NCBI GenBank assembly: GCA_973895155.1 | Contig: OZ316897.1 | Span: 5,841,327 to 5,905,326, forward strand | Length of the DNA stretch: 64,000 bases | Source of the DNA: Marsupella aquatica | Lineage: Eukaryota > Plantae > Marchantiophyta | Direction: 5' to 3' | In this document: positions 582 to 64,000 of the stretch, in pieces | Numbering within the stretch: the first letter of the stretch is position 1 | How the letters are laid out: each line of letters starts with the position of its first letter | Position numbers and translations under genes: made by a program | The notes under the pieces: generated by a model | Seen by the model: the letters and a program-made list of their open reading frames with translations, nothing else | Databases searched by the model: none | What the model was told of the DNA's origin: nothing

Positions 582-3161
582 CTACTTTTTACCCCAATCT
601 TCTATTACCTCGGCTAGGTACAGCCATGGCCTACCAATCAATAGCCAGAATGACGTAGGATTTACCGGCTTCATTACTACATAGTTAATGCTAAAGAAGA
701 TACCTCCTATCTCTGTCTTGATGCCGGTTAACACTCCCGTCGGAATGACCTGATATCCATTGGCCATGTTCAACACTCTTCCAGTCATCTCCGGTGTTAG
801 ACCCCACCCTTTTGCTGTTGAATCAATCATAATACATACCCCTGATCCTCCATCGATGGGTACCCGTAGTAATAATTCTCCTTGAATCATTAATGGTAAT
901 GCTGGGGCTCCTTGATCTTCTTCTATCATTAGTACGTCGGATCTGGTTGCTACCTTGGGTAATCTCGGCTTGCCGAGAATAGCCTTCCTTAATTGCTTCC
1001 GGAAGTACGGGCTATTTTTCAATAGTTGACCTACTATTGCCGAGACTCTAGATTCTAGTACATCTTTAGCCAGGTCATAGGGAACAATCGGCTTCTCTTC
1101 TGGTGGTGTTTCCGTCTTGGATTCGGCCAGTTTTGCCACGCTAGTCTCCACAGCTGTTGGGTCTTCCGAAGCAAACAATGCTTTTGCTCGTTTTACATCC
1201 TTGGCAATGGCTTCGGTATTCTCCAGGGTTTCTAATTCTCTTAGTTGTTCCTTAACACTAGCCGTAACAGAGGGGTAGAACAACTTAGGATGATCTCGAT
1301 TGAAGTCGCTATCTTGTGAAGGATTGGTTTCACTGGTGGGCTCATGGCTCACCTGTATTGCCGGAGCCCTCCCTTCTCCTTCTGTTGATGTTGACGAAGA
1401 GTCGATCCTTTCCTCCGTAACCTTCCCTTTATTTTTGGCCAGCCCATCCCACCTTTCCTTCCTTCTGGTAGATCGAGTAGAGACCCGGTAGCAATCATGA
1501 TCTAAATCCTCCTCTGAGAAGGTTGATAGGGCTTCGGCCTCATCATCAGATGGTACGAACTCTGCCTCGGCATCCTCTTGCCATCCTAGTTCGATGTGGT
1601 TGATTTGAACTCCTCCGGGGGTAGTACCTGGCGGTAAGATCTTGATCGGCAAAAGCTTATGATTTGCGGCCAGGCCTGCCAACCAAGTAGGACATTGCCC
1701 TAGCATATGACCTTCCTGTCGGCATCCCATACATAGCTGAGCTGGTTGTCCATCACCCTGTTTGCGTGCATTTGGGCATTCTCTAGCAAAATGGCCAGGT
1801 TGACCACAATTATAGCACGCCGCAAATCTTTGCACATTTGGCCTAGGAGGTACTGACGGGTTCTGAATAATCCGAGGATACATCTCTCCTGGATTGTTCC
1901 TTAACCCTGACCACAGAGATGCAGGTCTGTTGGATAGGTCTCGTGCTCCAGTCTCACTGATGCCGAAAACACTATCAGCGGCATCTCCCAAAAAGTACTC
2001 TACTTCTCCCTGACATGGTCTGATCTCGGCCACATGCCGAACATGATTAGTATTAAGCTTAGGACACGCATCTTTATGGTGTCCGGTTTTATAACATAAG
2101 GCACACCATACAGAGCTATCCTCGTGTACTACCTTCTTCTTTGGTTTTACCTCTGCAATGATAGCCTTAAGTTGCTCGGTAAGGGCTACGATGTTATCTG
2201 GTGGCTTAGCCTCCATCTTGACTTTCGTCTTCCCTCTCCTTCTGCCCTTCCTTTTCCTAGTTTTTTCTTCTTCAGAACTAGAAGATGACTCACTCTTGCT
2301 ACTTCCACTATCCGAGCTTGACTTATCACTTCTAGACTTCTTGGAATGTTTCTTCTTCTTATCTTTTTTCTTATGGGGTGATCCCTCCTCTGATGAGGAA
2401 CTCTCAGACTTAAGCTGTTTCTTCCGGCTTGTGATATCTGCATTAATGTATAATTGAATATCCTTAATTGCTTCGGCTAAAGTCTCCGGGTTCTCCTTCC
2501 TAATTGCAAAACTCATCTTCTGTGGCAAAGCATTCACCAACCATTGAAGTTGCATACCTTCAGATGCATTGTTCTTTGTACGTCTTACCAGTTTCTGAAA
2601 GCGTTGCAAGAACTTCCTGAAGGATTTGTTCTCTTTGAACCGAAGTTGTCCCAACTTCAGCACTGCTAGTTCTGAAGTTCCAATGGGTCGAAACTCCTTA
2701 ACAAAGAGTGTTTTGAAGATATCCCAGATGGCTTGATCTTCCACATCTAATGCTCTGTACCAAGGCCTAGCCTCACCCTTGAACAGGCCGGGAAGAATCT
2801 GCATCTTGATGGCCGATTCTCCATTTGCTGCAGCGGTTCCCTCGAAATCATCCAACCATTCGTCCGGATCCTCATCTCCTCTCCCATGAAATGCCTTGTA
2901 ATGTATGCGCGACCGCTGGCTCAATCTGGTCCCTGGCCTCTCGTCTGGCCGTGCCTCTGGTTCCCCCATGTCGGTTGGAGACTCACTTCTCCTTACCGAC
3001 TCTTCTTCTGGTATGTCTTCTTCGACGCCACTTCCAGTTTTGGAGCTACCAGCTCTTTTTGCCCCTCTCAGTCGCTGTGTATCATGCCACCCGGCGAGCT
3101 GCTGCAGTCGAGCTCTCTCCCGTTGAATCACTCTTTCTTCCCTCGGCGTAAGGTCAGTCAT
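582..3161 (-). pseudogene. gag-pol: Gag-protease portion of family A polyprotein
   Basis: Retrotransposon gag (FHGRGDEDPDEWL…EARPWY), CX2CX4HX4C knuckles (CALCYKTGHHKDAC, CYNCGQPGHFAREC, CMGCRQEGHMLGQC), protease IDGGSG…LLIGRPWL. The TAG at 582 is premature: the frame continues FTFGTPSITVSW, matching ELRIGEPTVRVSW in family B. Confidence 0.9.
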
Positions 3162-3208
3162 TACCTACGCTTCCGTTCTAACTTCATATCTCACGGCTTA
3201 AGAAATGC

Positions 3209-3226
3209 CCCCTCCATCTAGCGCCA
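3209..3226 (-). promoter_or_regulatory. Primer-binding site, tRNA-Asn type
   Basis: TGGCGCTAGATGGAGGGG, 4 nt from the LTR end. Complementary, with one mismatch, to the plant tRNA-Asn 3' end as I recall it (CCCCTCCTTCTAGCGCCA). Confidence 0.85.
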
Positions 3227-3230
3227 AAAA

Positions 3231-6194
3231 TGTGGTGCGTCCCATGGCTCCCTAAACCCAAGAAACCCCCCAGCTCAAGCCGATTCCCGCAGGTTTCGTG
3301 CTTGGCGAGGCCGTTTCCGCGGCTTAGCGGCATGGGACGCTGCTAACCTTCTACTACTACTATTAACATTTTACACACATATACTGGACAGATCCTTCAT
3401 CGGGTCATGAGATACGTAGCCGGCCTAATATAGGCCTTCCCCTGTCTTCCCCTGTCTTCTTGTTAGGTATGTTTGGATTCCGCCGCCGGAATGATCCCCA
3501 ATAGGCTTGGTTAAGCCGCTAAGACCTCTCTCAGCTCGACACATCCAACTCTCACTCCCCTGCTTACTTTCCTTCCTTCTGTTGATGTGGGCACTCTTCA
3601 CACAAGTTAATGCGACACACAAATAGCAAAATGACTCATTCTGACTGAGTCATACCATGCACTTGCCATACAAACAGTACATCTCATACACAAGTTCTGC
3701 GAACTAAGCCGTGAGGCCAACTCTATTCAGCTCTTAGGCATGAGGAAACATGAATATACACAAGGGTCACTGTATGACTAACCGAGAGCTTCTCGTACTA
3801 CTTGATCCCAGCCCGGCTGGTGCAAACTAAAAACTTGCTAAAGAAGAGGCCCTGAGCTCCCCGCTGCCCAGGTACTTATCCTGGTAGTGGATCCGCCATT
3901 CTTTGCATCGTAAGCCTAATCTACTTAACAGTAATCTACTTGCCCGAATCTACCTATGTACAGCAAGGCAGGAGCACAAGTGTTGCTCCTACCAGTGGGA
4001 CCGCAATCCCACTAAGCTAAGTGTCAGGGCCGCTCCTGGTTCTGATCCTAATCCTAAACGTGGAGATCCGCGCCCGCCCTGCCCACTCACGCCTCCTCCC
4101 TCCACGTCCACCCTCCCTAAAAGGAACGGCGCCCTTGCACCGTCACGACACCGGTGGTGGATCCTCAATGGACGCCCCCAACACTTCCTCCTCAGCCACT
4201 GCCGTTGGCCCGCCTACTGACAGATTACCTGCCCTTGACCGAGTCAACTCTCCATCGGCCTGACTGGGTCCACCTTCGGCTTCAGCCTCGACACCGGCCT
4301 CGGCAATACCCACGGCTTCGGCCTCAGCCACTCCCACGGCTTCGGCCTCCCCTTCCCCTAGGGTAGTTGGATCCCTAGCCGTGACCCTGTCTAGGGTCGG
4401 TGCTGGGTCTACCTCCTTGATCACCACGGCCTGTGAAGTCGTATTACTCCTTGACCCTGAAGGTTTCCGCTTCTTCTTCGTTGGTGGCTCGGCAGCTGGT
4501 CCCTTCCCCTTCCCACTTACTTCCGGCACTGGTGCAGGTGGCACGGCTTGTCCTTTGGCAAATACCACCCCTGGTAACTGGTTTTTCCCAACGGGAGATG
4601 GACCTGCTGCAGCTAAGCATTTAAATACTGCGGCTTGTTTCTTCAGCCGCTCTGTTTGGTTGTCGGCCCGCCGCTGTAGGTTCTCCATCTTCCTCGTGAT
4701 TTCCTCCAACTCCTCTTGGGTTTCATCCAGGTCCTTACGTGCCCCCTCCAGCTCGTTTTTGGCCTCCTCCTGCTCCCTGTGGGCTTCCTCCAATTCCTTC
4801 TTCAAGGTAGCCCTCTCCTCCTGGGTTGCTCTTAGCTCCTTGTCGAGCTCTGCAATGATGACAGACTCCATCTGGTTCATCTTGGCGTAAGTCTGTTCGA
4901 GCATCTCGTCCTTCTCCCTTAGGTCGGCCTTGAAGCTAGCCGTCAGGGACGCAAGCTCCTGCTGCAGCGCCATAATCCCTTGATAGGATTTCCCTAACTC
5001 GGCCTCCTTCTGCTCAAGGGCTCCGCGGATTTTCTCGAGCTCCCCCTTCAACGCCCATTCCTTTCTTTGGGTCTCCGCCATGGCCCGGCTGTTGGCTGTT
5101 ATGTGGGCCTCCTCTGTATTCTTCAGCTCTTGCTTCCACTTCTCCCTCTCTTTGATCGTGTCGGCCAACTCTTCCTGCGTCTGAGTCAGTTTATCCTTGA
5201 TATTCTGATTATCAGCCTGCGCGGTGTCCAACTGCCCCTGCATGATGTTCAGCTCATGTCGTTTAATCCGCAGTTCATCTTGGGCTTTCTTGGCCGCCCT
5301 TAGATCTTCAATCTCGGCTTCCATCCTCCTAAGCCGCCGAATGACCTCGTCCTTCTTGCTTCTCTCTAAAGCCACCGCTTCTTCTGCTCAGCTGGCTTCT
5401 TTGGTGCCGCCGACCTCGTTCTTTTTGCCGGGGTGGCTTCATCGTTGACGGCTCCCTTCCTCTTCATCTCTGCTGCCGTGGAGGTTTCTCCTAGCACCGT
5501 TGCCTGGGTCCACCTTTCCGTGCTACCCTTTAATTCCTAGTGTATGTCGTTGCAGTTCTTGATGGCCTCTCGGATGCCGACGACGCTGTCTTTGCAGAAC
5601 AGAAGATCGTCGAGTTGATTGGAAGTAGGCGTCCACAGGAACTCGTCCTTGATGAGTTCGCCTCCTAAGAAAGCCGTCTTCTGCAGCTCCCACAATCGAG
5701 CGAGCTCCTGCCGTTCTCGAGCTGCCCTTTCTGACTCCTCGTCCTCGTAAGTCTTGATGTACTCAGTTGCCCGTTCGAACAGGCATCCCCAGAAATGTGC
5801 CGCTTGATTGACGTTGCTCATACCCTCCTTAGGTCGATCGTCGGTATCTACTCTCTCCCCGAGTGCTTGCCTAAGCAGCTGACAGTAGTTGGCCTCCCGT
5901 AGTCGTCTGCCTAGTTCGTGCTCGCAAATGAGCCACCATCTCCTGCAAGCGCTCCTTACCCCTCTCCTCTGCCGGTCCTTCTTCCCGTTGATCCTTCCTA
6001 GCCGCCGACGCTTAACGCGCCCTAACCCTAATCGGGTTTTCACCCTCAGCCTTACCTCCGGCCTCTGCCCGGGTTCCATGGTTGCCCCTAATTGTTTATA
6101 TTTTCCTTGTTTTGTCCCTATACTAAGGTGTTCCTAGGGTGCCTTCCTGCTTTACCCACTTAACCGGCCGAGTGATTCCTGTCTAGGCATCACA
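3231..6194 (-). repeat. 5' LTR of family A (~2.96 kb), contains ORFs
   Basis: Termini form an inverted repeat with 7/8 identity (TGTGATGC…GCACCACA). One end abuts the PBS, the other abuts the interrupted pol of family B. Confidence 0.8.
4143..6079 (-). pseudogene. LTR-encoded accessory ORF(s) of family A: 180 aa (5537-6079) plus 410 aa coiled-coil (4143-5375)
   Basis: Two consecutive same-strand ORFs in different frames, separated by ~160 nt of coding-like sequence. Long heptad E/K/Q/L-rich region followed by PPTKKKRK (NLS-like). Confidence 0.65.
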
Positions 6195-9100
6195 ACGTGG
6201 AACAACTCCTCATCCGGAAAAATATCATCAATTGGCTGATCGACTGGTACGCCGTCCAGTCGTGAAAAGAAATCGGCATTGAGGTGTACCCTTCCTGGCC
6301 GAACCCGAACTTCGTAATTAAATTCCTGGAGAAGTAGCACCCACCGGGCTATCCGTCCTGTCACATCCGCTTTGTTGACCATGTACTTCAGGCTATCATG
6401 ATCCGTGTGGAAAATGACCTTGTAGCCTAGCAGATAGTGTCGGAACTTTTTACACGAGTAGATTATTCCCAAAGCTTCTCAATCAGTGGGGGAATAATTC
6501 TTTTCGGCTGCAAATAGTTGACGGCTAGCGAAATAGATGGGGTGATCACGTCCATCCTCATCTAGCTGACTAAGTACGGATCCGATACAGAACCCTGACA
6601 CATCGACATACACGTGGAACTCCTTATTCCAGTCTGGGGTGACCATGATAGGCGCGGTGGTGAGTCGTTTACGGAGTTCCTCAAAAGCAATCCGTCTTCG
6701 GGGTGTCTCCTCGACCGCTGCGTCCTTCTTCATCATCTCAGTTAAGGGCAACGCAATTTTAGCAAAGTCTTTAATGAACCGGCGGTAATACCCTACGCAG
6801 CCCAAGAAGGATCGTACTGCTTTTTGATCCAAGGGGAACACCACCGCCATCCAGGCCGCAACTTTCTCTTGGTCCACCTCAATGCCCCGTTTGGACACAC
6901 GATGCACGAGTAACACCCCCTCCTCTACCCCGAAGAAGCATTTGGCGGGATGTAGTTTGAGGTTAACATCTCGGCATCGTTGCAACGTTCGTCGTAGGTG
7001 TTCGGGGTGCATGGCAACGGTTCCGAAGATGGCAAAGTCATCGATAAATATCTCCAAAAATTCCCGTAGGAAATCGTGGAAGATATTCATCATAAGGCGC
7101 TGAAACATAGCCGGGGCGTTACACAGACCAAAAGGCATCCTCCGAAATGCGAACGTTCCCCACTCCGTAGTGAAAGTTGTTTTGAGCTGATCCGCGAGAC
7201 GAATCCAGATTTGGTTATAACCTGAATACCCGTCAAGAAATGTATAGATTTCATTTCGGGCCACCATATCTAGAACCATATCCGTGAATGGTAATGGGTA
7301 ATGGTCTTTTTGGGTTGCGTCATTCAGCTTACGGTAGTCCTGACAGATACGAATCTTAGGTTTTCCATCCGTACCTCCCTTCTTTGGTACAATGACAATG
7401 GGAGAGACCCAGTCGCTGGCCATTACCGGGTAAATGATATCGGCGGCGAGGAGACGATCAATTTCCTCCTTCACTAAGATGGAGTACCTCGGATTCATGC
7501 GACGTTGTCGCTGTCGTACCGCATGGGCTCCTAGGTTCAGATCGATTGTGTGTTCTCCCAACTAGGGGGAGACGCCTGTTAAATCATGATGACTCCATGC
7601 AAACACATCTTCATATTCCTTGAGCAAAGCTTGGATGGCTTTTTCAGCCTTCCCCGTCAAAGCGTGGCCCAGGTTAAAAGATTTGTCCATCCCAATAGTG
7701 TACTTCCGGTAGTGCTCCTTCCTGATGACTTCAACCTGGTTTCGCAGACTCGGGTCCAGGCTCGCGTCAAGCTCAGCTAACCGAACCCCTCCGTACATGG
7801 GTGGGACCGGGATTGGTCTCGGGATGGGGTTTACTTCCTCCAATTGCGGAATGGACGGATCCCATGAGACTCGCTTTTTATGTCTCGGTCTCGAGTTTTC
7901 GGCCTCAGGCGGTTGTTGGGCTGGTTCATGGTTACAAGGCTCTGAAATGGAAGGAGTAGCCTTGGCTCCCTGCTTGGCTGGAGCCGTGTCCTCCATCTCG
8001 ACGAGTTGTTCGTGCGTTTCCTCATCCCCGACAGTAGATGTACTTGGGGTGGACTCAATGGCAGCCCTCGGGTAATTTAGGAGATGTGTTTCTCGGGTTG
8101 CTTCAACTCCGAAGACATCTTCCTCGGATAGGGACGAGATGAGTTCGATCATATTGAGTTCCTCTTCCTCCGAGGTCTCCGAATCATATTCCTCGGGTCC
8201 TTGTGGGGTTTCTCCCTGATAATCGTCCATTGCCCAGGATACCCGTACGGTGGGTTCCCCGATCCGTAGCTCCTTCTTTCCCCAATCCGTGACTACATGG
8301 CCACCGTACAGCCACGGCCTGCCCAGAAGAACCGGATAAGAGGAGGGACGAACCGGCCTCATGACTAAGAAGTTGAGATAGAACTCTACCCCTCCCACCA
8401 GAGTGAGCACTCGTGTGAGCGTGCCTAATGGGAGGACCCTTGCCCCGTTTGCTAATCTGATAGCTCGGGCCCTGGGTTGATACGTGAGGTATCCTAACTT
8501 GACTGACGTTTCTTCAGTCATGATGTTGACTCCCGCTCCTCCGTCTACAAGAACCATCTTGATGGTACAGTTATTAATTTCGATCGAGATGTCCGGCGCT
8601 CCAAGGTCCTCGCATATCATGTTGCAGTCCGCACTCCCAACTCGGGGTAGTCTTCTCCTTTGGCGACCCATGAGCAACTCCCTCAGTTGTCGTCTGTACT
8701 GTGGGTTGTTCTGCAGCAGTTGCCCCACCGTCGCTGTAACCGGGCAACTCTTCACGTCCTCCTTAATATCATAGTCCTCCTTTGTTTCTTTCGTTGGCTG
8801 CTGCTTGGCTTCCTCTTGTTTATCTTGCTTTTCTTGCTCCTGACGTCGGGCTGTCTCGGCTGCTTTGATGTCCTTATCGATTGCCTTCTGGTATTCCCGA
8901 GCTTCGTAAGCCTCCAGCTATTTCTTTACCAATTCTTCGATGCGGGGGAAAAACAGCTTCGGGTCGTCCCGTCGGTAGTCATCGTCCTTTTCCGGGGGTA
9001 TATTTATCGCTGGCTGCACCGGAGTAGTATCTTGCTTTTTCCTCCATTTCTCCTCCGTCTTTTCTTCCTTCCGTTCGGCCCTTGTCGACACTCGGTAGCA

Positions 9101-10828
9101 CTCGGCCTCATCCAATGGATTAGGGTGTTCCGCCACGTCCACCAGATTCACCCACTCGGTGTTGTCATCTTGCCATTCTACAGCAATCATTTGGACGACT
9201 GCATCGCTCGTGACTGGTCCAGCCTGGGCCGGTCTAGCCGCACTCGTTCGAGCAGCGATTACCAACGGACAGTTGGCCGTGGAATGAGCCTCCGTTTTGC
9301 AAACTTGACATAGTGGGGTGCCTCGGCCATCTCCCTGACGTCTTGGTTCGGTGCATTCCCTCGCAAAGTGTCCTGGCTTTTCACAGTTGTAACAAACCGG
9401 GGACTGCCAAATCCCTGGCTTAGGAGGGATGCTCGGGTTACTGATAACCTGGAAACTCCGGCCATTACTTGGGTAGGGGTACGCAGTTCTACTCGCTAAA
9501 TTACGCGGACCAACCGTTGAAATCTGGTACACGGAATCAGGAGGGTCCTCAAAGAAATACTCCGTGGACTCCGATTCGGGGCCCGGGTTGTCAACATCAT
9601 CCAGCTCTACTTGGTGAACTCGGTTCTTCCACCTTGGGCATTCCTGCACCACATGGCCGGATTGGAAGCACTTTGAACACCACGCATGGGCTCGAATCTC
9701 AGATGGCTTCTTCTTCTCCACCGGCTTCTCCGCAAGATGTATTGACAGTGCTTTGAGTCGATCCGTGATTTCGTTCAGCTTGTCTGCTTCGGCAGCCTTT
9801 GGATCTGGTATCGTTCTTCGCGCCCGGGGTTTAATCTTCCCCTCCTTCTTCACTCGTCTCTTCTTCTTTTTGCTCCGGCTTTCGCTCTCCAAGTCACTTC
9901 CTGATGAACTGGAGGTAGAGGATCCGATGCTTGAAGCTGAATCCGAACTGGATTCCGTCTCGGAGCTGGACGAGGTCGAACGATGTTTCTTCTTCTTCTT
10001 CCGTTTCTTCTTCCTCTCGTCGTCCGATTCGGAGTCACTGTCACTGAAGGTTTCGTACTTACCCTTCCTGCGGCGTGCTCGCTAGCTCCGCCGGGAGTTA
10101 TAGGTGGACTCCCGGTAAGTTTCGGCGCACGCTATGGCCGCCTGCATTGAAATTGGATTATTCTGGCGTACCCAGAATTGCATATTCATGGGCAAACCAT
10201 GAAGGAACCATGTAAGCTGGAGCGCGTCTCCTGGCCTGGGCCGGATCTTGGCCGCAAGTTTCTGAAACTTCTAAATGAACTTCCGCAGGGACTCTTTTTT
10301 TCCCATGCGAAGCTGGCCAATCTTTAATAGAGAACGCTGTTCTGATCCAATGGCATGAAACTCCTGCAGCAATGCAGCTTGGAATTGTGCCCAGGTAGTC
10401 CCGGGTGGTAACGAGTTGTACCATGGACGAGCTTCTCCCCGCATTACTCCCGGGAGGACGGTTAGCTTAATGGCGTCTTCCCCATTAGCTTTAGCAGTGG
10501 CTTCAAACTCATCCAACCATTCATCCGGATCATCCCCATGACGCCCTTTGAAAGGTCGATAATGAAATCGCGATCGTTGCGATATTTGTGGAGGCGCCTG
10601 AGCAGCGCGGGCCACCGGTGGAGCGGCTGCCATAGGTGGTGGTGGTGGTGGTGGTGGAACCGCAGCAGGGCCGGTCGAACCGGACCCCAAAGATCCCGAG
10701 GGTATGTTCATACGTCGAGACGATTGCGAGTCCTCCGAGCCCGATGAGTCGGAGCTTGTTGTGGTTGCACTTTCTCGTTCGCTGGTCAATCTCCTCAAGT
10801 AAGCTGCTTGAGAATGAGTGACGGGCAT
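6195..10828 (-). pseudogene. gag-pol: gag-pol polyprotein of family B with five in-frame stops
   Basis: ORFs starting at 10828, 9892, 8755, 7561 and 6472 are all in one frame. Motifs: 3 CCHC knuckles, protease LVDGGAG, RT (LDGYSGYNQ, MPFGLCNAP, FIDD), RNase H (VDVSGFCIGSVLSQ, TDHDSL, NADFFSR). Confidence 0.93.
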
Positions 10829-10921
10829 TTACTCATATAAATGCAATGGTTAGTACTACGTCCTGATGTATCCTGCCTAGGTGAATACGCACATGTCTCC
10901 CCTCTACGATATGTAGAGTGC

Positions 10922-10939
10922 CCCCTCCATCTAGCGCCA
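10922..10939 (-). promoter_or_regulatory. Primer-binding site, tRNA-Asn type
   Basis: TGGCGCTAGATGGAGGGG, identical to the family A PBS, ~95 nt upstream of the gag ATG. Confidence 0.85.
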
Positions 10940-11852
10940 AAACAAAGGCTATGTCACATCGTAGGCTTCGGCCTTAACTCAGACTTCAGCTTAGACGGGC
11001 ACATCCCTCGTAAATCTGAGGGTTCGGGCAGGAAGGGAAGCACGTAATGCACCTTATTCTCGTAAACTAGCGCTAAGTGCGCATACTGCTAAATACGGAC
11101 ACCTCCTAGGTATGGTTTGTGTTCCACCGCCGGAACGTACCTTAGTCGATAGCAGGATCGACCCCGGCTTAAGGGCTTCTAAGCCTTCGTGCTGTCCGCC
11201 TTCGATCCGGATTCGATGATACAGGTCCTCAACCCGTGCTCGCAACCACTTACCCGCAGGCTGCACCCTGTGCACGTCTCGGGTAGTGCGTTCGGCCCGG
11301 CGCTGCCACCCATATACGAGAAACCCACACACATATGCGCACACATGCATACAATCTCGATTTACACGAAGGAAAAATGATGGGAAAGGATTTTACTACA
11401 AAGGGAACATATGCGTACACTTAGTTGACACGACAGCCCTGGAATGCACAGGTTCAAGGCCAAGGGTGCACACTACAACGGAGCCCGGCTCTGCACTCGC
11501 CCGGTGAGCTTAGTCCTACCCCCTCCCCTTGGTACTCTGTCATTCCCAGAGGTCGGGACTCCCCGCATGTCCCGCGGATGTCCGACTCTGAAACTAAAAA
11601 CCCCCCCCCTTGCCTCTACCGAGGGGTGCACTAAATACTAAGAGCCGAGGAACGGGGCGTCCTCCCGCCGAAGATCCGCTGACCAAGGTCCTAACTAAGC
11701 TGACAGTCAGGCCGGAAAATGGCTGTGTCTTATTAGAAGATCCTAATCTACGCAGGCTGGACAGCAGGGCAGCGCTGCTGTACCTAAGGCAGGTGCCTGT
11801 CCCAAGAGCCTGACTAAGCCAATCCTAATCCTAATCTATTCCTACTCCGCCG

Positions 11853-14501
11853 CTAATGCCTGGCACGCTTGCCAGAGCCGCCCGAATGGGAACGGCCATC
11901 CCGCTGCCTTCGAAGCCTGTCATTGTCCGCTTTGAGGAGCTGGACCTGGTCCAGCAGAGATTCGTTCTCTCGCCTCGCCGCGTCCGTCTCCTCTGCTGCC
12001 TCCTGACATGCCTCCTCCAGCTGCTGGGCGTCACTCGTCAGTTTACTCGCCAGCTGGTCCTGCTTCTCGGCCTCGGTTTGGAGCCGCGCCATCTCAGCCT
12101 GCAGCGTGGCTATCTCCGTCGCGTCCCGCTGGGCTCGCTCCTGGGCCTCCTCCAGGTCTTTCTGCCAGGTGACAGCTTGTTTCTTCAAACTGTCAATCTG
12201 GTTCCGGAGTCGTGTAATCTCGGCCTCGTTCCCAGCTTTGGCCTGTTCGGCTAGGGCGGTAAGAGCGTACGCCTTTGCTAACAACTCATCAGCGGCTGCA
12301 ACCTTGGGTCGTAGTTGCAGAAGCTCAGCCTCTTGAGCCGCCACTTCGTTCTTTAGGTACACGGACTCCACCCGGTACCGCTCTATCCTCTGAAGGGCCT
12401 CCGACTGGGCCCGACCTGCCTTTACGGCGGCAACCAACTCCTGATTGAAGAAACAGGCTACCTTCCGGGCCATGAACTCCCCGGTATCCCGGGCAATTTG
12501 ATGAGAGAAATCTCCCAGAAGCCCGTTCAGAAACGTACCCTGTACGAAGAGTTCCGGGTGGTCCAAGTTGTGCCTGTCCGGATTTGGGCACGGGCAGACA
12601 TCAACACGCGCAGGGGCCGGGGCAGTGACGTCCAGCCCTGGGGACATAACGTTGGAAGGGGCTGGAGTGTCCTCCTGCAGCGATGTCCGGTTCTCCGGAA
12701 TTGCCACCGGCGGGTCCTTGGGAGACCCGGGTTCGGGTAAGACCTCTGTCGTACCAACTTCTGTACTTAGCCCGGCTAGTTGGGTCGCATCAACGGTTGC
12801 AACGACCAACCCCTTCGGCGCCTCCTCGGTTACGATTACAGCTATTTGTGGAGGTGGGGTGGGTGAAGCTGGCGTGTCCACTGGACTTCGGGCCTCGGGT
12901 TGGGGCCGTCTCTCCAATGCCGGAAAAACCCACCTAGCTGGGACCAGCTTTGTAACGTTGATGTGGGGAAGGGTTCGTCGATCAAACCGGGCGTACCACT
13001 CAAGAATGATTTCGATGTGGCTAGCGAAATACGCTTTCCCGCCAATGTACAGCGTCTTCCTTCGCCGCTCCATCTCTTCATGGAATTTCTTAGCGAAGTA
13101 CGACGCCCATTTCCTAGGTCGATAGTTCTCGACCTGGATGACCTGGGCGGCGGAGATCTCCCCCCGGGGTTCCATCATGTGGAGAGCGTACCTCTGGAAC
13201 TCCAGCCGCTCAGCTATCTCGGGCATGAGGCAGGTCCTCATCACGAACCCGTTGTCCACTGATCCCTCTGAGGGAAAACTTGAAGATTGGTACTTGGCCC
13301 CCTTGCCCCCGGGAGCCCGTGATTCGACTCGATGGTCACCTTCGGGTAACCCGAAGATCATCTTGAGCCGTTCTTCTGTGAGGGACATATTCCTTCCCCG
13401 CAGCCGAGTCTGTTGACGTACGTCGTCATAATTCTTGACGAATTCTGTCATGTCCTCCCCGTAGTACCTGCAAGTGTTCCAGGGGAGAGAGGCGAGGTGC
13501 TCAAATCCCTGAGTCTTCAGGTACACCGCATGCTTGGGATGGAGGATGTTGCTGTGAACGTTTTCCCCCATGCGATGCATCGTTACCTTGGCTACGGCTA
13601 CCGTGGCCAACGGTAACCCGGATGCACTGGCGGATTCCTTCCTCTTCTTTCCCCGTGACTGACTCGGGGAAGGTGATACTTCCCCATCCTCCCGATCGGG
13701 CCTGGGGAGTGCCACTGCGGTTGGTAACGGGCCCGGGGCGGCCATGGTCACCATGTTGTCTGCTGGGGCCGCTCCTGGGGTCAGAGCAGGGGGTGGGGAC
13801 GATATAGTGTCGGCCCCCCGAGCGCTTGTTCCTCTGGGCCGCCTGGTCAAGGGTGGGGTAGCCTCGTCGTCATCGCTAAGATCCACAGCGTTGATGACGG
13901 AGCGTACCTGTGCTGGCTGGGTGATAGGTGGTGGGGTTTGGCTAGGCCGCGGCTGAGGCTGAAGCTGAAGCTGAGGTTGCATGGGCACGGGCACGGGTAC
14001 GGGTACGGGTACGGGTCCGGCTGAGTTGGTCATGTTGGTTGATGGCCGAGTTCCCATGAAGCTCTGTAGGTGCTGGTAGAAGTTCTCCGAAGCAAGTGCG
14101 GATGCCCTTGTCGAACGGTTGGTACTGGACTCGCCGTTAATGATAGCCCGAACCTGGGCAGGGATGTGGTCGAAGTGATGTCGCTGTAGGTCGATTGTAC
14201 CCGGGATATTGAAGACCTCGTCCGGAAGCCGAAGCAATGCTTCCCAGAACCCGATATATTTGTCTCCGTTGAAGAAGTACCCAGATACCTCAGCTGGTCG
14301 GTAAAGCTCGCTCTGAGACGGGTAGTCAAAGTTAAGGACGTAGTGGTGTCGTCCTGCTAGGCGGATGGCTCTCTCGTATTCGCGTTCGATCTCGTATCGG
14401 CGCGGGTTGGCGTGTTTCAATGAATCGGCCAAGTGCCTTCCGGTAGATAGGAACTGCGTCCAGAATCGAATGGCCGAGCTGGAGAGGATCGTGTGCGACA
14501 T
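11853..14501 (-). CDS. Intact 882-aa LTR-encoded protein (globular N-terminus, Pro-rich linker, central PMD/Athila-accessory-like domain, C-terminal coiled coil)
   Basis: Uninterrupted 2.65-kb ORF with ATG and an upstream TATA. The homologue at 60792-63422 differs mostly at synonymous sites. Motif EFVKNYD…LRGRNMSLTEERLKMIFGLPEG; NLS-like RGKKRK. Confidence 0.85.
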   Translation of the reverse strand: MSHTILSSSAIRFWTQFLSTGRHLADSLKHANPRRYEIEREYERAIRLAGRHHYVLNFDYPSQSELYRPAEVSGYFFNGDKYIGFWEALLRLPDEVFNIPGTIDLQRHHFDHIPAQVRAIINGESSTNRSTRASALASENFYQHLQSFMGTRPSTNMTNSAGPVPVPVPVPVPMQPQLQLQPQPRPSQTPPPITQPAQVRSVINAVDLSDDDEATPPLTRRPRGTSARGADTISSPPPALTPGAAPADNMVTMAAPGPLPTAVALPRPDREDGEVSPSPSQSRGKKRKESASASGLPLATVAVAKVTMHRMGENVHSNILHPKHAVYLKTQGFEHLASLPWNTCRYYGEDMTEFVKNYDDVRQQTRLRGRNMSLTEERLKMIFGLPEGDHRVESRAPGGKGAKYQSSSFPSEGSVDNGFVMRTCLMPEIAERLEFQRYALHMMEPRGEISAAQVIQVENYRPRKWASYFAKKFHEEMERRRKTLYIGGKAYFASHIEIILEWYARFDRRTLPHINVTKLVPARWVFPALERRPQPEARSPVDTPASPTPPPQIAVIVTEEAPKGLVVATVDATQLAGLSTEVGTTEVLPEPGSPKDPPVAIPENRTSLQEDTPAPSNVMSPGLDVTAPAPARVDVCPCPNPDRHNLDHPELFVQGTFLNGLLGDFSHQIARDTGEFMARKVACFFNQELVAAVKAGRAQSEALQRIERYRVESVYLKNEVAAQEAELLQLRPKVAAADELLAKAYALTALAEQAKAGNEAEITRLRNQIDSLKKQAVTWQKDLEEAQERAQRDATEIATLQAEMARLQTEAEKQDQLASKLTSDAQQLEEACQEAAEETDAARRENESLLDQVQLLKADNDRLRRQRDGRSHSGGSGKRARH

Positions 14502-14602
14502 TCAGAGGAGATAGTAGTGGCGACCTAGAGAGAATGAGAGAGCTGGGGTCGAAGCTGGCGCGCGGACTGATGGACTGGTGCACTACAAAGGGTTGGCTCC
14601 CC

Positions 14603-14609
14603 TTTTATA
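14603..14609 (-). promoter_or_regulatory. TATA box of family B LTR
   Basis: GTATAAAAGGGG ~100 nt upstream of the ORF ATG, conserved in copy 2 (60686 TATAAAAAGGGG). Confidence 0.7.
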
Positions 14610-15847
14610 CTTTGAGGGCTTGTCGATCCCCGACGTCTCCTCGATGCCCATAGGTTGAACCGCTCACGCTTGTGGTGTACCGGCCACTCCGCCGGTTTGA
14701 GTCAGCGTGCGTCAGTGGCCGCTTCCTTAAGTTTGTTATACGGACCCGAGGGAGGGGCCCCTCCACGCTCGTAACCCGGGTGTGCGAATAGCGACCCGCC
14801 GCCAGCCCGAACCTGAAGTCCCCCTTATTGCCTAATGATGTCCTACCCCTATTGATTACCTAAATACTGTCGTTATGCTAATAATAGCGGCCTAAGACCC
14901 ACCTAATGCGCGTGCCGAGCGCAGTTAGACTGAATCACTCATTAACCGCCGTACCGGCGGCGTCACAGTACTGCTTTTCAATTCTTGTCTCTGTTCAATG
15001 TTGTCCTTATGGAATGCGCTCTCAGTCTTTGAATGGTTGCATTCGATCCTCTGTTTTGTTCGTGCCTTTCCTCCTCTCTCGATCGTTTTATGCCCCCTTC
15101 CTCTATAATTTTCATTATCTACTATCCTTATCAGAATTTGTTTCGTTTCTTCTCAGATTTAAAGGTCGTTTCCAGAGGGGTTTCTTCACCTTCAATCCTT
15201 ATTGTTTCTCGCCTCAATCCTTAATACTTTCGATTCTCTTTGTCAGCGCCTTACCAATGTTCACTGCCAGTGCTTTCTCTCACACCGACTCTTTCTCGAT
15301 TCTTGCTTAATCATTTTCTCTCGCTCTCTCTCGTGCCTCCTTAAGTGATCTTCAATGTCCTTATGAGATCGGTCCGTCATGGTTCGGCATAGGTAGTCCA
15401 TGGCTTCCGCAATGACATTTGGAGGAATCACAAACGTCCTTGTTAAACCTAAAATTAGAAATGTGATCGAGAAGTTCTCATCCATAGCTTCTTGGGAGGG
15501 GCAGTTATGTCAAATCTATAAACACTCAATGAAAATCTGGCCTTTCTCTCAAAGAAAAAATTGCTCGTGGAGAGCTACGTGCTGATAACGTGTTGTGGGA
15601 GAAATGAGACAAAGAGTTGGTTCCATCTTTACTCTTGGTAGAATATGTACATGTGGCTATGGCCTAAGTAGTTAGGGTAGTTACATAGGTAGTTATCCCA
15701 AAGGTAGACTTAACTCAAGTATGAGTTACAACAGTATGTAGGTTTTCTTTGTTGTTAGTCATTGTCTTGTATTTTTGGACTGAGACAATCTCAGTCCAAA
15801 GTTCAAATTTGGTTTTCTTCTAAGAGTTGTATTTGTTGCACTTGCAG

Positions 15848-16485
15848 AATCGAGACCTTGTCCCATCAAGCGGAAGTTGTTGATTTTGGATCTTAACAAA
15901 ATACTTTGGGATTCTCTTGAATTCCAAAGCAAGGGCAAATCTAGAAACATTGTGACCCCAAATGGAGTGCATTGGGATAGATCAAATGGAACTAGTCGCA
16001 TGTATACAGAGAGGCCAGGGCTCCATGAGTTTCTAAAGTTGGTTTTTGACCGGTTTGACGTTGCAATTTGGACATGTGCTGGGATGCCGCGGACAGTGAA
16101 AATGTTGAACATGATGTTCACTGTTGAGGAGCGGTTGAAACTGAAGTTTGTATTCACACAGGTGGAAGCCTTTGACACAGTCATTCAAAGGCGTGACATT
16201 ACAAATGGAAAGGCAAATGTGCTATTGAAGGATTTTCGGGTGGTATGGAGTGCATTTGGAAATCTATATGATGAAACCAACACACTCCTTGTGGATGACT
16301 CCCCCTTGAAGGCCTTTGCCAACCCAGACATGACCGGACTATTTCCAGTGCCCTACACGCATGCCAATCGTGGAGACAATTTTCTTCTAACAATTCTTTG
16401 GCCATGTCTTGAGAAACTGTCACATGCAAGTGATATTCGTTGTTATCTTCTCCTAAACTCTCCAAAGTGGTCTCTATTGCACATT
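15848..16485 (+). pseudogene. FCP1/NIF-family HAD phosphatase-like ORF, 5' part
   Basis: KLLILDLNKIL, ERPGLHEFLKLVFDRFDVAIWT, LLKDFRVVW, YDETNTLLVDDSPLKAFANP. Preceded by an acceptor-like ttgcag. Confidence 0.8.
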
Positions 16486-16753
16486 TCTGGGAAAATAATT
16501 TTTATAATAAAAGGGTGAGACCGCGAAAACCCCACGGCCGGGGGAAAGCAAGCAGCCCCCTAGATATATCAGCACAACTCCCACAGGGAGGCCAGCAGGC
16601 AAAAGCAAAGGCCGGAGTCACAATAAACAACAAAAAGGGGAGACTGAAGCAATGGGCCCAGAACGTGAGTGACCCACACATCATGTCAACTTGTAGAGTT
16701 CTAGAGCCAATGAGCGAGGTAACCCATTCACCCTTTTCCAATAGCTATCACTC

Positions 16754-19501: not shown

Positions 19502-20197
19502 CTTCTCCCGATCTCATTTGGCTTTAATCGTTGCAAAATAGAATTTAGTGCTTTCTTCCCCTTCTCCAAGCCATTTAATTCGTGCCAGTCTTCTGCCTAG
19601 CATCGCTTCCTCCATTTCAGCCAGGTGAAGCTGATCTTCCGCCAGGACGTACTCCGTCACTGTTTCCTCAGAGTTGAATTCTTCTAACGTTTCCTTCATA
19701 TTCCGTAGTTGGGCTCTTAAGAAGTTCATTTCTTCTTCCTTCTTCTTTGGTAGCGCCTGTATTTCCTTGTAAGCCTTCCGTAGTGAGCTGCAAGCAATGG
19801 CAAATTTTGCGTGTGGATCTCTAGCATTATCCTTTCCGGTCCTCCAGGCTGCTTCTAGCTTCTCTCTGTTTTCCTCTTTTCTCAGTACAGTGGGGTCAGC
19901 CTTAAAGAGGTGAACCCGGTCCAGCCCTCCGCACTCCCTAGCCTCCTAGAGTCAAAGTTCCAATAGGATAGGGTCATGATCAGAAAGCGTGGACCCACCA
20001 TCGTGCATTAGGCAGACCGGACCACAGACCCACCAGCCTCCATCATTAACGTAGAAGCGATCCAGCCTTGATTGCATCAGCTCCTCTCCTCTCCATCTCC
20101 TCCATGTGAATAGAGAGCCAGACTTTAGCCCTCCAATCTTCAATGCATCCACCAAATCAAACCTGGTTGTCAGGAAGCGCCAGAATTCTGATTCCAG

Positions 20198-20492
20198 ACT
20201 CAAGGGTCTCACTATATGGGGATCTCCCCATCGCCTGCGACGTTTATAGGCCTCGGACCCCCTAAAATGTAAGAAAAAATGTATTTTTAAACCCCTATAA
20301 AGTTGGAATATTCTTGGAATATTCTAAAAATTGGATTAAAAAGACCCTAATGTTCTTATAAGTCTCAAAATTGAATTTAAAAGACTCTATTGTTCTTCTA
20401 CAAAAATTCTTAAGTCTTCCCTTAGAACCAATAAAATGACCCTATCCTTCGTCGCACGTGATATGCCATTTTTGTGGAAGTGAAACCCCCGA
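20198..20492. mobile_element. MITE (hAT-like) inside LINE endonuclease
   Basis: GATTCCAG is repeated at 20190-20197 and 20493-20500. Imperfect TIRs TCAAGGGTCTCACT / AGTGAAACCCCCGA. Removing the insert restores LIRGLES-EFW. Confidence 0.65.
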
Positions 20493-30750: not shown

Positions 30751-31480
30751 CTCTAATTAGATATAACGAATGAGTAACTTCCTCCTTGTTTCTGGTTTCT
30801 TGGCCCTCATCAATGTGCTTGAGGGCTGTTGTTCCTTAGGGGCCCCTGTTGTAGGGTTTTCTTGTTCTTCCGTTGTCTTGGCCCTTTTGCTTTTGCTCGG
30901 GTCCCTGCCCTGTCCGGGCTCTTTGTTTGCCTGTTGGCCCCCACTTCCCGTGGGTTTTTGCGGGTTTTTTTGGAAAAATAAAATAAATAAATAATAAAAA
31001 ATGACAATTAAGTAAAAAGCTTGTGTCTGGTTTCTCTCCAACCCAAACAAGTTATATTCACACTTGTTAATGAGGTGCCTTAGAGATGTCGTTTCTAATA
31101 GATATCCATTTCTCTATAATTTCAATTCTACTTGATGTCCACAAAAAAATCCCTTGCTGCCCCCATTTTGACCTTTGTGTCATTTCTTGATCCCTTTTTG
31201 TTGCTCAATTTTGTCCTTTGCCCCCATTCTCCCTTGTTGCGTGATAGCATCCTTGCCCTTCGTGACCATTCCCCCTAATTTACCCAATGGTATTGTTTAA
31301 AGTGATAGCATCATTGCAATTGGCAACCTAACAGGAACAAAGCATTGGGTTTAGGGCCCTGGGAGAGAATTGAAAGCCCAATTGCTCTTAACTCAAATCT
31401 AGATGATGACTGAACATGAAAGAAGGAAGTATTCGGAAAGTAGAGTTGATGGGGAGGAAACTTGGCAGAGAGTTCAAGAG

Positions 31481-31825: not shown

Positions 31826-31827
31826 AT

Positions 31828-60318: not shown

Positions 60319-63300
60319 TGTGACGCTGCCGGTACGGTGGGTAATGAGTGATTTGGCCTAACAATGCTTAGCACGTGCATTAGGGGTATCTTAGGCCATA
60401 ATTACTAGCATAACGATAGTATTTAGGTAGCCATTATGAGTAGGAAATCATTAGTCAATAAGGGGCGTTCGTGTTTGGGCTGGCGGCGGGTCGCCATTCG
60501 CACGCCCGGGTTGCGAGCATGTAATGGGCCCTCACCTTTCCCCCTCGGGTCCGTATAACAAACTTTGGGAGGCGGCCACTGACACGAGCAGACCCGGACT
60601 GGCGGAGTGGCCGGTACACTGCAAGCGTGAAAGGCTCGGCCTATAAGCGACAAGGAGGCGTCGGGCGATCGATGAGCTTTCAGGGTATAAAAAGGGGGCC
60701 GATCCGTTGTAGTGCACCAGTTCTTCAGTCCACGAGCCAGCTTCGACCCCAATTCTCTCGCTTATCCTTAGTCGCCTTCTATCTCCTCTGAATGTCGCAC
60801 ACACTCCTTTCCAGTTCGGCCATACAATTCTGGACGCAGTTCCTGTCTATCGGAGGGCACTTGGCCGACTCATTGAAACACGCCAACCCGCATCGATACA
60901 AAATCGAACGCGAATACGAGAGAGCCATCCGCCTGCAGGCCGCCACCACTATCTCCTTAACTTTGATTACCCGTCCCAGAGCAAGCTTTACCAAACCCGA
61001 AGAGATATCAGGGTACTTCTTCGATGGAGGCAAATATATCGGCTTCTGGGAGGCACTGCTTTGGCTTCCGGACGAGGTCTTCAATATCCCGGGCATGATT
61101 GAGTTACAATGGCACCACTTTGACCACATCCCCGCTCAGGTCCGGGACATCATCAACAGCGAGTCCAGCACTACCCAGTCTACAAGGGCGTCTACACTTG
61201 CTTCAGAAAACCTCTACTGGCACCTACAGAATTTCATGGCAACCGTACCATCGACCACCGGTGCCAGCCCAGCCGTGCCCGCACCAGCACCAGCTCAGGC
61301 TCAGGCTCAGGCTCAGCCTAGCCAAACCCTGCCACCAGTCACCCCGCCCATACAGGTGAGATCCATCGTCAACGCCGTAGATCTCAGCGATGACGAAGAG
61401 GCTACGTTACCCCTGTTCAGGCGACCCAGAGGAGCGAGCACTCAGGGAGTTGGGACTACATCGCCCCCTCCCAGGCCCAGACTCGAGTAGCAACTCCAGC
61501 GGATAACACGGTGACCGTAGCCGCCCCGGCCCCAATACTAACGGCGATAGCACTACCTACCCGATCAAGAAGATGGGGAGGTGTCACCCTTCCCGAGCCA
61601 GTCTCGAGGAAAGAAGAGGAAGGAACCCGTAGCCGTATCCGAGTTACCCATGGCCACGGTAGCCGCAGCCAAGGTGACAATGCACCGCATGGGGGAGAAC
61701 GTGCATAAGAACATCCTCCACCCCAAACATGCAGTGTACTTGAAGACTCAGGGGTTCGAGCACCTCGCCTCTCTACCCTGGAACACCTGCAGGTACTACG
61801 GGGAGGACATGACGGAGTTCGTCAAGAATTATGACGATGTCTGTCAGCATACTCGGGTGCGGGGGAGGAATATGTCCATCATAGAAGAGCGGCTCAGGAT
61901 GATCTTCGGGCTACCCAAGGGTGATCACCGGGTTGAATCACTGGCTCCCGGAGCCAAAGGAGCCAAGTACCAATCCTCGAGTTTTCCCTCCGAGGGGTCA
62001 ATGGACAACGGGTTCGTGATGAGGACCTGCCTCATCCCCAAAATAGCCAAGCGGCTGGAGTTCCAGAGGTACGCCCTCCACATGATGGAACCCCGGGGTG
62101 AGATCTCCGCTGCCCAGGTTATCCAGGTCGAGAACTATCGACCTAGGAAGTGGGCGTCGTACTTTGCTAAGAAGTTCCATGAAGAGATGGAGCGGTGAAG
62201 GAAGGCGCTATACATCGGCGGGAAGACATATTTCATGAGCCACATCGAGATCATTCTTGAGTGGTACACCCGGTTTGATCGACGAACCTTTCCTTGGGTC
62301 AACGTAACTAAGTTGGTCCCAGCTAGGTGGGTCTTCTTGGCCCTGGACAGACGGCCTCAACCCAAGGCCCAAAGTCTGGCGGCCACGCAAGCCTCACCCA
62401 CCCCACCTCCACAAGTAGCCGTAGCTGTAGCCGTGGCCAAAGTGGTACTAGACGAGGCAGTAATCGCGACCTTAGACACAATCAACCAGGCTGGGCCGAG
62501 AGCAGAAGTCAAAGCGGTAGAAGACTTGGCTGGGCCCAAGGGTCCAGAAGACCCACTGGTGGCTATTCCGGAGGACAGGACGATGATGGAGGAAGACACT
62601 CCAGCCCCTTCCAACCCTACATCCCCGGGGCTGAATGTCACTACCCCGGCCCCCGCACGAGTTAACGTCTGCCCGTGCCCAAATCCGGACAGGCACAAAC
62701 TGGACCACCCAAAACTCTTCGTACCGGGTACATTTATGAACAGGCTTTTGGGAGATTTCTCCCAACAGATTGCCCGGGATACCGGGGAGTTCATGGCTCG
62801 GAAGGTAGCCTACTTCTTCAATCAGGAGTTGGTTACCGCAATAAAGGCAGGTTGGGCCGAGTCGGAGGCCTCTCAGAGGATAGAGCGGTACCGGGTTGAG
62901 TCCGTGTACCTAAAGGATGAAGTTGCGGCTCAAGAGGCTGAGCTTTTGCAACTACAACCCAAGGTTGCAGCCGTCGATGAGTTGTTAGCAAATGCGCACG
63001 CCCTTATTGCCCTAGCCGAACAGACCAAAGCTGGGAAGGAGGCCAAGATTGCACGGCTCCGGACCCAGGTTGACAGTTTGAAGAACCAAACTGTCATCTG
63101 GCAGAAAGACCTGGAGGAGGCCGAAGAGCGGGCCCAACATGACACTGCGGAGATAGCCACCCTGCAGGCCGAGGTAGCGCGGCTTCAAACCAAAGCCGAG
63201 AAGTAGAGCCAGATGGTGGACAAGCTGACGAGCAACGCCCAGCAGCTAGAAGAGGCATGCCAGGAGGCAGTTGAGGAGACGGACGTGGTGAAGCGAGAGA

Positions 63301-64000
63301 ACGAATCTCTGCTAGACCAAGTCCAACTCCTCAAGACGGACAACGACAGACTTCATAGGCAACGGGATGGTCGCTCCCACTCGGACGGCTCTGGCATTAG
63401 CGGAGGGTTAGGCTTAGAATAGAACTAGGAGTAGCTAAAACATGCTGTTAGGACAAGCGCCGGCCAGAAGATAGCGGCGCTGACACATTAGCTAGCCTGT
63501 GTAGAATAGGTTAGACTAATAGGACAAGCCATAATCAGCTTAGCAAGGATATAAGTTAGCGTAGATTTGGGCACGAGGCCAGGCTGGTCCTCAGCCCTTA
63601 GTATTTAGCAGCCCCCCGATAGAGGCAAGGGGGGGGGATTTTAGACTCAGAAGTTGGCCATTCGCGGTACGTGTGGGGAGTCCCGGACTCGGTGAAGTAC
63701 CGGAGTGCCAAGGGGAGGGTATATGACTAAGCTTGTTGGGCAAGTGCGGAGCCGAGCTTGGTTGTAGTGTATACTCCTCGGCCTTGGGCCCGTTCTTTCA
63801 CGAGGTGTCGGGTCAACCAATCGTAAGTGTATGATCATAAATGAATGAAATCCTTTTCCCTCAATTGCTTCGTGTAAATCGAGATTTATGTTTATGTGTA
63901 AATGCATGTATGAGTCTCGTGTGCAAGTATCAATGTCAGGCCGAACACGTTATGCCAAGCATGCACGGGGTGCAGGTTACGGATACGGGGTTGCGAGCCG
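60319..64000 (+). mobile_element. Second copy of family B giant LTR (runs off window end)
   Basis: Begins TGTGACGCTGCCGGTACGG, like 14967 on the - strand. Colinear homology through TATA, ORF and 3' region. Confidence 0.9.
60792..63422 (+). pseudogene. Disrupted copy of the 882-aa LTR-encoded protein
   Basis: ORFs 60792-61490, 61581-62198, 62235-63206 and 63213-63422 align with the 882-aa protein, with frameshifts and CGA>TGA / CAG>TAG stops. Confidence 0.9.

Follow-up and report, generated by a model that had tools for sequence, protein, structure and literature searches.

The 64,000-nucleotide window analyzed here comes from the liverwort Marsupella aquatica (contig OZ316897.1, positions 5,841,327 to 5,905,326; positions below are those of the window). 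Its left quarter is filled by a nest of two related elements, probably of the Ty3/Gypsy superfamily, both read on the minus strand, which we call families A and B (Table 1). The segment at 3231 to 6194 belongs to family A, interrupts the pol region of family B, and contains two open reading frames (ORFs). Taken together, our observations are probably best explained if this segment is the entire 5′ long terminal repeat (LTR) of a family A element lying in family B pol and holding a single broken accessory gene, which likely shares ancestry with a gene in the LTR of family B.

Table 1. Features of the two nested elements and of the second family B LTR, in window positions.
Feature	Positions	Strand	Remarks
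Family A 5′ LTR, inferred	3231..6194	-	2964 bp; TG...CA ends, primer site 4 nt past, no internal repeat, one depth plateau
Family A 5′ terminus TGTGATGC	6187..6194	-	position of the break in family B pol
ORF1, 180 codons	5537..6079	-	ATG at 6079; likely true start Met 5821
N-terminal domain common to family A, the family B LTR gene and liverwort relatives	5519..5821	-	profile match from Met 5821, spans the ORF1 stop
Basic, low-complexity linker in the ORF1 frame	5369..5536	-	from translation; frame break near 5380
ORF2, 414 codons stop to stop	4143..5387	-	393 codons from first Met; predicted coiled coil at residues 2-260, low-complexity tail
Non-coding 3′ part of the family A LTR, 912 bp	3231..4142	-	holds TTAGGATTAGGAT at 4057-4045
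Family A primer-binding site	3209..3226	-	TGG 4 nt after the CA end
Family A gag-protease frame, 860 codons	582..3164	-	Retrotrans_gag E 2.8e-10, zf-CCHC E 1.3e-8 (Pfam)
Family B gag-protease-reverse transcriptase (RT)-RNase H, host of the family A insertion	6195..10828	-	broken by stops; Pfam gag, zf-CCHC, aspartyl protease (sub-threshold), RVT_1, RT_RNaseH
Family B 5′ LTR, about 4.0 kb	10940..14967	-	3′ end uncertain, 10940-10952; primer site TGG at 10939; depth plateau
Family B LTR gene, 882 aa, intact	11853..14501	-	N-terminal domain, linker, VANC-like central domain (about residues 300-525), coiled coil
Second family B LTR copy	60319..64000	+	79% identical, gene broken, runs off the window

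Read from 6194 to 3231, the family A segment opens with TGTGATGC and closes with GCACCACA, termini that match in inverted orientation at 7 of 8 positions. The 5′ terminus was the only match of at least 7/8 to the inverted 3′ end within 3231-9652, and three such matches occur within 3231-16000. The primer sites of the two families are identical over 24 nt, and we take that of family A to be of the tRNA-Asn type. It starts with TGG at 3226, after a TTTT that follows GCACCACA, and its distance of 4 nt from the CA end lies inside the 0 to 5 nt downstream of the LTR end used as a criterion in PMC6317226; the gag domains come next. At the other end, the switch from family B pol to family A falls between 6195 and 6194, directly past the end of the RNase H profile. 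Six contigs of run X1 fit B pol from 6195 on and have other letters where the window shows family A, so uninterrupted family B copies exist; one contig of run X6 also departs from the window sequence at 6195. The gag regions of A and B match at 51% over 107 aa and 34% over 326 aa, and the proteases at 41% over 223 aa. Past the family A protease, a stop stands in frame at 582-584, followed by 137 further open codons with no Pfam match. The first-pass annotation of this DNA was thus borne out in describing a 2964-bp segment with inverted termini that interrupts family B pol, in assigning one primer site to both families, and in calling their gag proteins homologous.

The extent of the LTR was assessed by contig depth in 4 of 16 runs (X1, X2, X3 and X6), summed contig depth being, by the tool's own warning, not copy number. 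Six runs, under four organism labels, contain at least half of the words sampled, and the richest of them may derive from the source of the window itself. The part with the ORFs stood at 2.9, 3.3, 3.3 and 8.4 times the gag depth in the four runs, and at 1.21, 0.77, 0.70 and 0.85 times the depth of the 3′ non-coding part. By this rough measure, both parts of the segment reach 2.4 to 9.9 times the gag depth in 4/4 runs, i.e., at least twice the abundance of the internal region. A short LTR followed by an internal ORF predicts an ORF part near gag depth, and the three- to eightfold values therefore support an LTR that covers the whole segment; because depth is not copy number, they support this reading and do not prove it. 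The first-pass annotation had considered that the LTR might be limited to 3231-4150, with a separate element beyond. This finds no echo in the four runs, in which depth across the segment formed one plateau with no step at 4150. None of the best-supported 15 of 159 joints removes the ORFs, and these joints reach a depth of at most 448, against a plateau near 300,000-790,000 in X1 and X2. Self-comparison detected no repeat inside 3231-6194, and hence no second, shorter LTR at 6194. Four TG..CA sub-segments have 4-bp flank repeats; none ends near 4150, and none has repeats of 5-6 bp. Single contigs link 3231 and 6194 to unrelated LTR positions, as expected of insertion ends.

Two observations weigh against a 2964-bp LTR: the ORF part reaches only 0.70-0.77 of the 3′ part depth in X2 and X3, and the window contains no 3′ LTR, polypurine-tract junction or target-site duplication, the partner LTR being expected to the left of the window. 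A composite of a short LTR at 3231-4150 with a separate element, or an internal extra-ORF region, at 4151-6194 would agree with the ORF part standing at 0.70-0.85 of the 3′ part depth in 3/4 runs and with a partner LTR outside the observed sequence, but it is very improbable in view of the excess over gag, the inverted end match at 6194 where a second LTR copy was looked for and not found, the absence of an end near 4150 among the four TG..CA sub-segments with 4-bp flank repeats, and the same layout in two family B insertions. We regard it as very probable that all of 3231-6194 is LTR. Depth, ends and the two family B insertions agree with the first-pass view of a giant coding LTR whose layout is common to two related families, and two families in one genome may hint at a lineage-level trait, as proposed there. 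Joints at 6194, 3231, 14964 and 11159, where single contigs run from an LTR end into the interior of another A or B LTR, indicate that the families often insert into each other's LTRs.

The length of ORF2 exceeds that of all 500 shuffles (maximum, 319). A rough script found heptad-like stretches at its residues 2-260, its tail contains KKKRK at residue 304 (4478-4464), and its Pfam matches were sub-threshold coiled-coil ones only; the two ORFs, the coiled coil and KKKRK had been pointed out in the first-pass annotation, at these positions. Within the ORF1 stop, position 5538 has another letter in 96% (X1), 98% (X2), 100% (X3) and 100% (X6) of contig depth. Loose ends occur at 5380 in 5 X1 contigs and 14 X2 contigs, indicating that other family A copies differ there. 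Because the ORF1 stop is absent from 96-100% of depth, loose ends fall at the frame break, and a domain match runs across the stop (see below), ORF1 and ORF2 very likely represent one gene that is broken twice in this copy. The merged gene would have roughly 560-650 codons, depending on its start. An Arg-rich stretch of 86 codons before Met 5821 has no counterpart in aligned relatives and is likely incidental. Word searches, all of them weak negatives, returned no relatives of ORF2 among proteins of 227-725 aa, none of ORF1 among proteins of 315-2000 aa and, with the N-terminal alignment, none of family A among proteins of 794-2265 aa only. An Atlas search with ORF1 gave nothing at 0.9. The family A ORFs yielded 8 variant rows, too few for a selection test.

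The two independent family B copies start at the same TGTGACGC in unrelated flanks; the start of the second, at 60319, is also the edge of the RT of a long interspersed nuclear element (LINE). In the LTR of the first copy, the CA nearest to the primer site is 12 nt away, with none inside 5 nt, a point that counts against our overall reading. Its ends are weakly inverted, and contigs differ in length at 10938. Between the two B copies, the ratio of nonsynonymous to synonymous substitution rates (dN/dS) of the LTR gene is 0.24 at a dS of 0.49, computed from 842 codons after 18 of the first 860 had been dropped for gaps or stops, with values of 0.14 for residues 1-150 and 0.11 for residues 311-530. 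This argues that the LTR gene of family B was kept under purifying selection. About 108 nt before the B start codon, a TATA box (14609) is conserved in both B copies. Family A has its sole TATA[AT]A at 6100 and none at a B-like distance from Met 5821, which also weighs against our reading. The sequence GTATTTAG occurs three times in the non-coding parts of the first B LTR (14967-14502 and 11852-10950), and two of these occurrences are conserved in the second copy (60319-64000); absent from both LTR ORFs and from family A, it is a candidate binding motif.

A full HMMER search with the B protein retrieved 42 relatives at E ≤ 0.001, most of them over residues 305-525. A species name was found for 8 of the 20 relatives looked up and for 5 further cluster members, and it was always that of the liverwort Calypogeia fissa, in which these 13 proteins are unnamed products. 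Of the 57 fetched proteins examined, 12 have the N-terminal domain, and 7 of these 12 also have the central one. In C. fissa, CAM6101869-70 and CAM6101879-80 are split N-terminal/central-domain proteins with neighboring accessions, located on one contig in mirrored order, and are likely element copies annotated as genes. Viral contigs searched with the B RT gave two pattern matches and no relative. The primer-site pattern was found at 14 loci in metagenome contigs, 0/14 being related by tblastn, blastn or profile; the 18-mer of the primer site recurs in several of these contigs with similar upstream sequence and no gag or LTR gene, perhaps as a tRNA-derived repeat of another organism. Rfam gave 0 matches over 2900-15500.

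BLAST revealed no link between the A and B LTR proteins. From the relatives above, we built a profile of the N-terminal domain (120 residues, 12 sequences) in which family A had no row. This profile ranked ORF1 third of 1270 six-frame pieces of the window, behind the two B copies (E, 0.012), with 11.8 bits against a maximum of 6.4 in 1000 shuffles. With stops read as X, family A reached an E value of 0.0034 among 1278 window tiles and was the only non-B tile under E 2, the next unrelated tile being at 2.4. As a single target, it gave an E value of 5.5e-7 and 15.8 bits (maximum of 7.8 in 2000 shuffles) over positions 4-99 of the 120-residue model, with one small gap. hhalign of family A against the B N-terminal profile gave 88.4% (E, 2.8e-6) over residues 1-100, the best of 40 shuffles reaching 3.1%; a 98.7% hhalign match was discarded as circular, since its alignment included the family A row. 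The match opens at the first residues of both proteins, whose starts lie 373 nt (A, Met 5821) and 466 nt (B) into their LTRs, and the distance from stop codon to primer site is 916 nt in A (912 + 4) and 913 nt in B. The first-pass annotation had described a different ORF in family A, with no obvious similarity to the B protein beyond coiled coil and basic patch, and had raised the possibility of exchanged cargo. The former is not supported, as ORF1 is recognized by N-terminal profiles of B made free of family A, and a remote domain at the same position with nearly the same stop-to-primer spacing speaks against the latter. On these comparisons, the A and B genes are very likely homologous through their N-terminal domain, and shared ancestry with fast divergence and probable domain loss would fit better than an exchange of cargo.

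The profile of the central domain found nothing in family A on either side of the break near 5380. Family A likely lacks this domain as a family, not merely in this copy. A rival account is that family A normally has a VANC-like domain, that this copy lost it by a deletion near 5380, and that the real LTR is about 3.6 kb long. Other copies do differ at 5380, where the loose ends have a median of 12-16 letters and one X3 contig has 46 unaligned letters, and in family B a basic patch directly precedes the central domain, just as the basic linker precedes the break in A. Given that neither side of the break retains a trace of the domain, we consider such a deletion doubtful; it would in any case bear on the domain-loss step of family A only, and leave the LTR and homology claims unaffected.

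Other observations weigh against homology itself. The match between A and B is remote, at 16-18% identity and 15.8 bits, and sub-group profiles give family A 4.2 and 9.8 bits against 21-40 bits for true members, indicating that A is an outlier. This low score, together with the blank BLAST comparison and word searches, and with the missing central domain, longer coil and long tail of the A protein, could be taken to favor the first-pass view of giant coding LTRs with unrelated, exchanged cargo, in which the N-terminal resemblance is chance between helical regions. We find that explanation improbable, because the match extends over positions 4-99 of the 120-residue model with one small gap, opens at the first residues of both proteins and scores about twice the best shuffle, and because no other non-B tile of the window falls under E 2. 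At the DNA level, the 912-bp non-coding part of the A LTR did not align significantly with its B counterpart, scoring 39 where the best of 200 shuffles scored 40. The first-pass annotation had also noted a motif after both ORFs. TTAGGATTAGGAT is indeed present at 4057-4045 in family A and at 11833 in family B, but it was rejected as evidence: a 12-mer common to both regions arose in 56 of 1000 dinucleotide shuffles, which is near chance, and in the second B copy the motif is degenerate.

We modeled the central domain of the B protein (pLDDT, 88.5) and compared this one model with known structures. In a Foldseek search of the PDB, the best match was VANC21 bound to DNA (E, 0.019; probability, 0.99; TMq, 0.53), followed by a hit at E 1.6. 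In a VIA comparison over 48,161 chains, VANC21 again came first (Z, 7.9 over 210 residues; root-mean-square deviation, 4.5), the next Z being 2.4. The VANC21 match extends across the domain and is well separated from the remaining hits. Atlas provided leads only, to Transposase_32, ATHILA, DUF1985 and PMD clusters (0.81-0.82), and a comparison with viral structures gave nothing at E ≤ 0.001 (best, 0.022; TMq, 0.31). The B version of the N-terminal domain (pLDDT, 85.3) has no Foldseek match in the PDB (best E, 3.1) and no Pfam match. VANC proteins are sequence-specific anti-silencing factors (PMC5735166); VANC structurally resembles MAIN/PMD, and VANC and the Athila domain have been modeled as coiled-coil oligomers (PMC13547354; bioRxiv 10.1101/2024.09.27.615353).

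On these grounds, the family B gene likely encodes a nuclear accessory factor that binds DNA. A more specific proposal, for which we see the chances as evenly balanced, is that it forms a nuclear coiled-coil oligomer whose VANC/PMD-like domain would bind element DNA and counter host silencing. Several points count against going that far. A Z of 7.9 is in the range that VIA calls common and the Foldseek E value is above 0.001, both below firm thresholds; the Atlas scores are under 0.9; the proteins scanned had no Pfam match to ATHILA, PMD, Transposase_32 or DUF1985; and, as the central-domain profile is blank in A, the anti-silencing reading lacks direct support for the family A gene. What is seen in family A is the N-terminal domain, the basic linker, the long predicted coil and the tail with KKKRK. 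By kinship alone, the A protein may have a related role; lacking the central domain, it would act through its N-terminal domain and coil, as a partner or scaffold and not as a DNA reader.

As to how a gene might come to lie in an LTR, we somewhat favor its origin as an Athila/Tat-type accessory gene that moved there. The extra ORF would first have stood between pol and the 3′ LTR; the plus-strand priming site would then have moved upstream of it, so that the ORF and its own promoter were taken into what we presume to be U3. In reverse transcription, each end of the element receives a copy of all that lies from the 5′ terminus to the primer site, and the gene would therefore be present twice per element, and again in solo LTRs. 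Each LTR, solo LTRs included, would form a promoter-ORF-poly(A) cassette, with the constant 0.9-kb tail past the ORF holding the genomic promoter, R and U5, and genomic RNA starting there. The gene may instead lie in R or U5, with a sole promoter upstream of the ORF and genomic RNA that begins with it; the extra ORF would then be a 5′ one behind which the primer site had moved, and minus-strand strong-stop DNA would reach a length of about 3 kb. Each LTR does have its single canonical TATA[AT]A upstream of the ORF (at 6100 in A and at 14609 in B, where both copies conserve it), and extra ORFs upstream of gag-pol are described in Retrosat2, RIRE3 and RIRE8 (PMC3485330). This arrangement is unlikely, however, since gag would come behind an ORF of 650-880 codons, transcription would presumably have to cross the 5′ LTR's own poly(A) region, and the constant 0.9-kb tail after the stop resembles an ordinary LTR body. 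Keeping the gene in U3, one may go further and speculate, against the balance of probability, that an OTA clade of the liverwort lineage put a VANC/PMD-like anti-silencing gene into its LTR, that solo LTRs stay self-contained anti-silencing cassettes once the rest of the element has been lost by recombination, and that family A shed the DNA-binding domain, kept the N-terminal domain and coil, and is now a co-factor of, or a parasite on, B-type proteins.

Plant LTRs count as non-coding sequence. In the two related families described here, the LTR appears to enclose an entire accessory gene, which in family B is under purifying selection and has a predicted VANC21-like fold. The arrangement makes the anti-silencing idea for retrotransposon extra ORFs testable, and suggests that VANC/PMD-like transposon proteins exist far outside the MuDR elements of dicots. 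If it is correct, solo LTRs could keep making protein, and clusters of unnamed "genes" in liverwort annotations may find an explanation.

The window has other repeats and genes outside the nest. A Ty1/Copia element on the plus strand (31477-39839), with 300-nt direct repeats that are 98% identical and with RVT_2, SH3 and pre-integrase domains, looks recent and full-length. On the minus strand lie a plant L1-type LINE (16754-20323; RVT_1 and zf-RVT), whose ORF2 is broken by stops, and LINE fragments (57651-60401), with RVT_1 at 59949-60401 and zf-RVT at 57654-58082. Between the B LTR and the first LINE, a single-exon frame of 244 codons on the plus strand (15784-16518) encodes a NIF (FCP1/SCP-like) phosphatase (E, 2.4e-16). 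A large exon of a host ubiquitin C-terminal hydrolase gene, with UCH at its 3′ end, occupies 43604-44944 of the same strand.

In family B, protease is followed by RT and RNase H, and no integrase precedes RT, so that the Copia order is excluded; the integrase lies beyond the window. Of family A, gag and protease alone are present, homologous to those of B. The family B RT presumably resembles that of Athila. No aRH is seen in family B from gag to the cut, beyond which the 3′ part is missing, and Tat Z1/Z2 elements also lack aRH (PMC10508981). The order protease-RT-RNase H seen in family B is also that of Athila and of the aRH-less Tat elements Z1/Z2, members of the OTA superclade (PMC6317226, PMC10508981, PMC1142308). 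OTA elements have LTRs of up to about 5 kb, comparable to those of A and B, a primer site within 5 nt of the LTR end, as in family A, and fast-evolving extra ORFs with ATHILA, PMD or Transposase_28 domains, to which the A and B proteins have no Pfam match. These OTA extra ORFs are placed downstream of the polyprotein and their function is called speculative (PMC6317226). In Athila, the extra ORF is downstream of pol, a region that falls outside the window for A and B, and often has ATHILA (PF03078); the ORF seen in A and B lies inside the LTR, with no Pfam hit and an Atlas lead of 0.82 only. On the sequence at hand, we do not place the two families between Athila and Tat Z. Both groups have liverwort representatives: PMC12885004 describes Athila elements from a liverwort genome, and PMC10508981 reports aRH-less Tat Z1/Z2 elements from Marchantia.

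Long LTRs are also found in Ogre (1.9-6.5 kb; PMC6431247) and Retrosat2 (over 3 kb; PMC3485330). Like the A and B genes, the extra ORFs of Ogre, Retrosat2, RIRE3 and RIRE8 are upstream of gag-pol and evolve faster than pol (PMC6431247, PMC3485330). Those of Ogre, however, are internal (PMC6431247), whereas the A and B ORFs precede the primer site; ORF0 is described upstream of gag-pol, apart from the LTR (PMC3485330), and Retrosat2 belongs to the chromoviruses (Tekay/Del). A further comparison is with VANC21/DUF1985 and MAIN-type PMD proteins (PDB 9LNJ and 9LNK): the predicted fold of the B central domain is that of VANC21, and a coiled coil follows it, as coiled-coil oligomers are modeled for VANC and the Athila domain (PMC13547354). 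VANC, in contrast, is encoded by MuDR (VANDAL) DNA transposons of dicots and the A/B gene by retrotransposon LTRs, identity is 9-11%, and the VANC21-like domain was not found in this family A copy. A phrase search of the literature, which was narrow and covered few subscription papers, found no case of an ORF inside a plant LTR among the papers listed. Retroviruses do have ORFs in or overlapping U3, such as sag of mouse mammary tumor virus and nef of human immunodeficiency virus, whose coding sequence is duplicated with the LTR in each round of reverse transcription, as proposed here; these ORFs have a few hundred codons or less and unrelated sequence, and the U3 location of the A/B ORF is a presumed one. 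Long LTRs, extra ORFs, PMD-like domains and nesting are thus each known, and it is the placement of the gene inside the LTR that is new.

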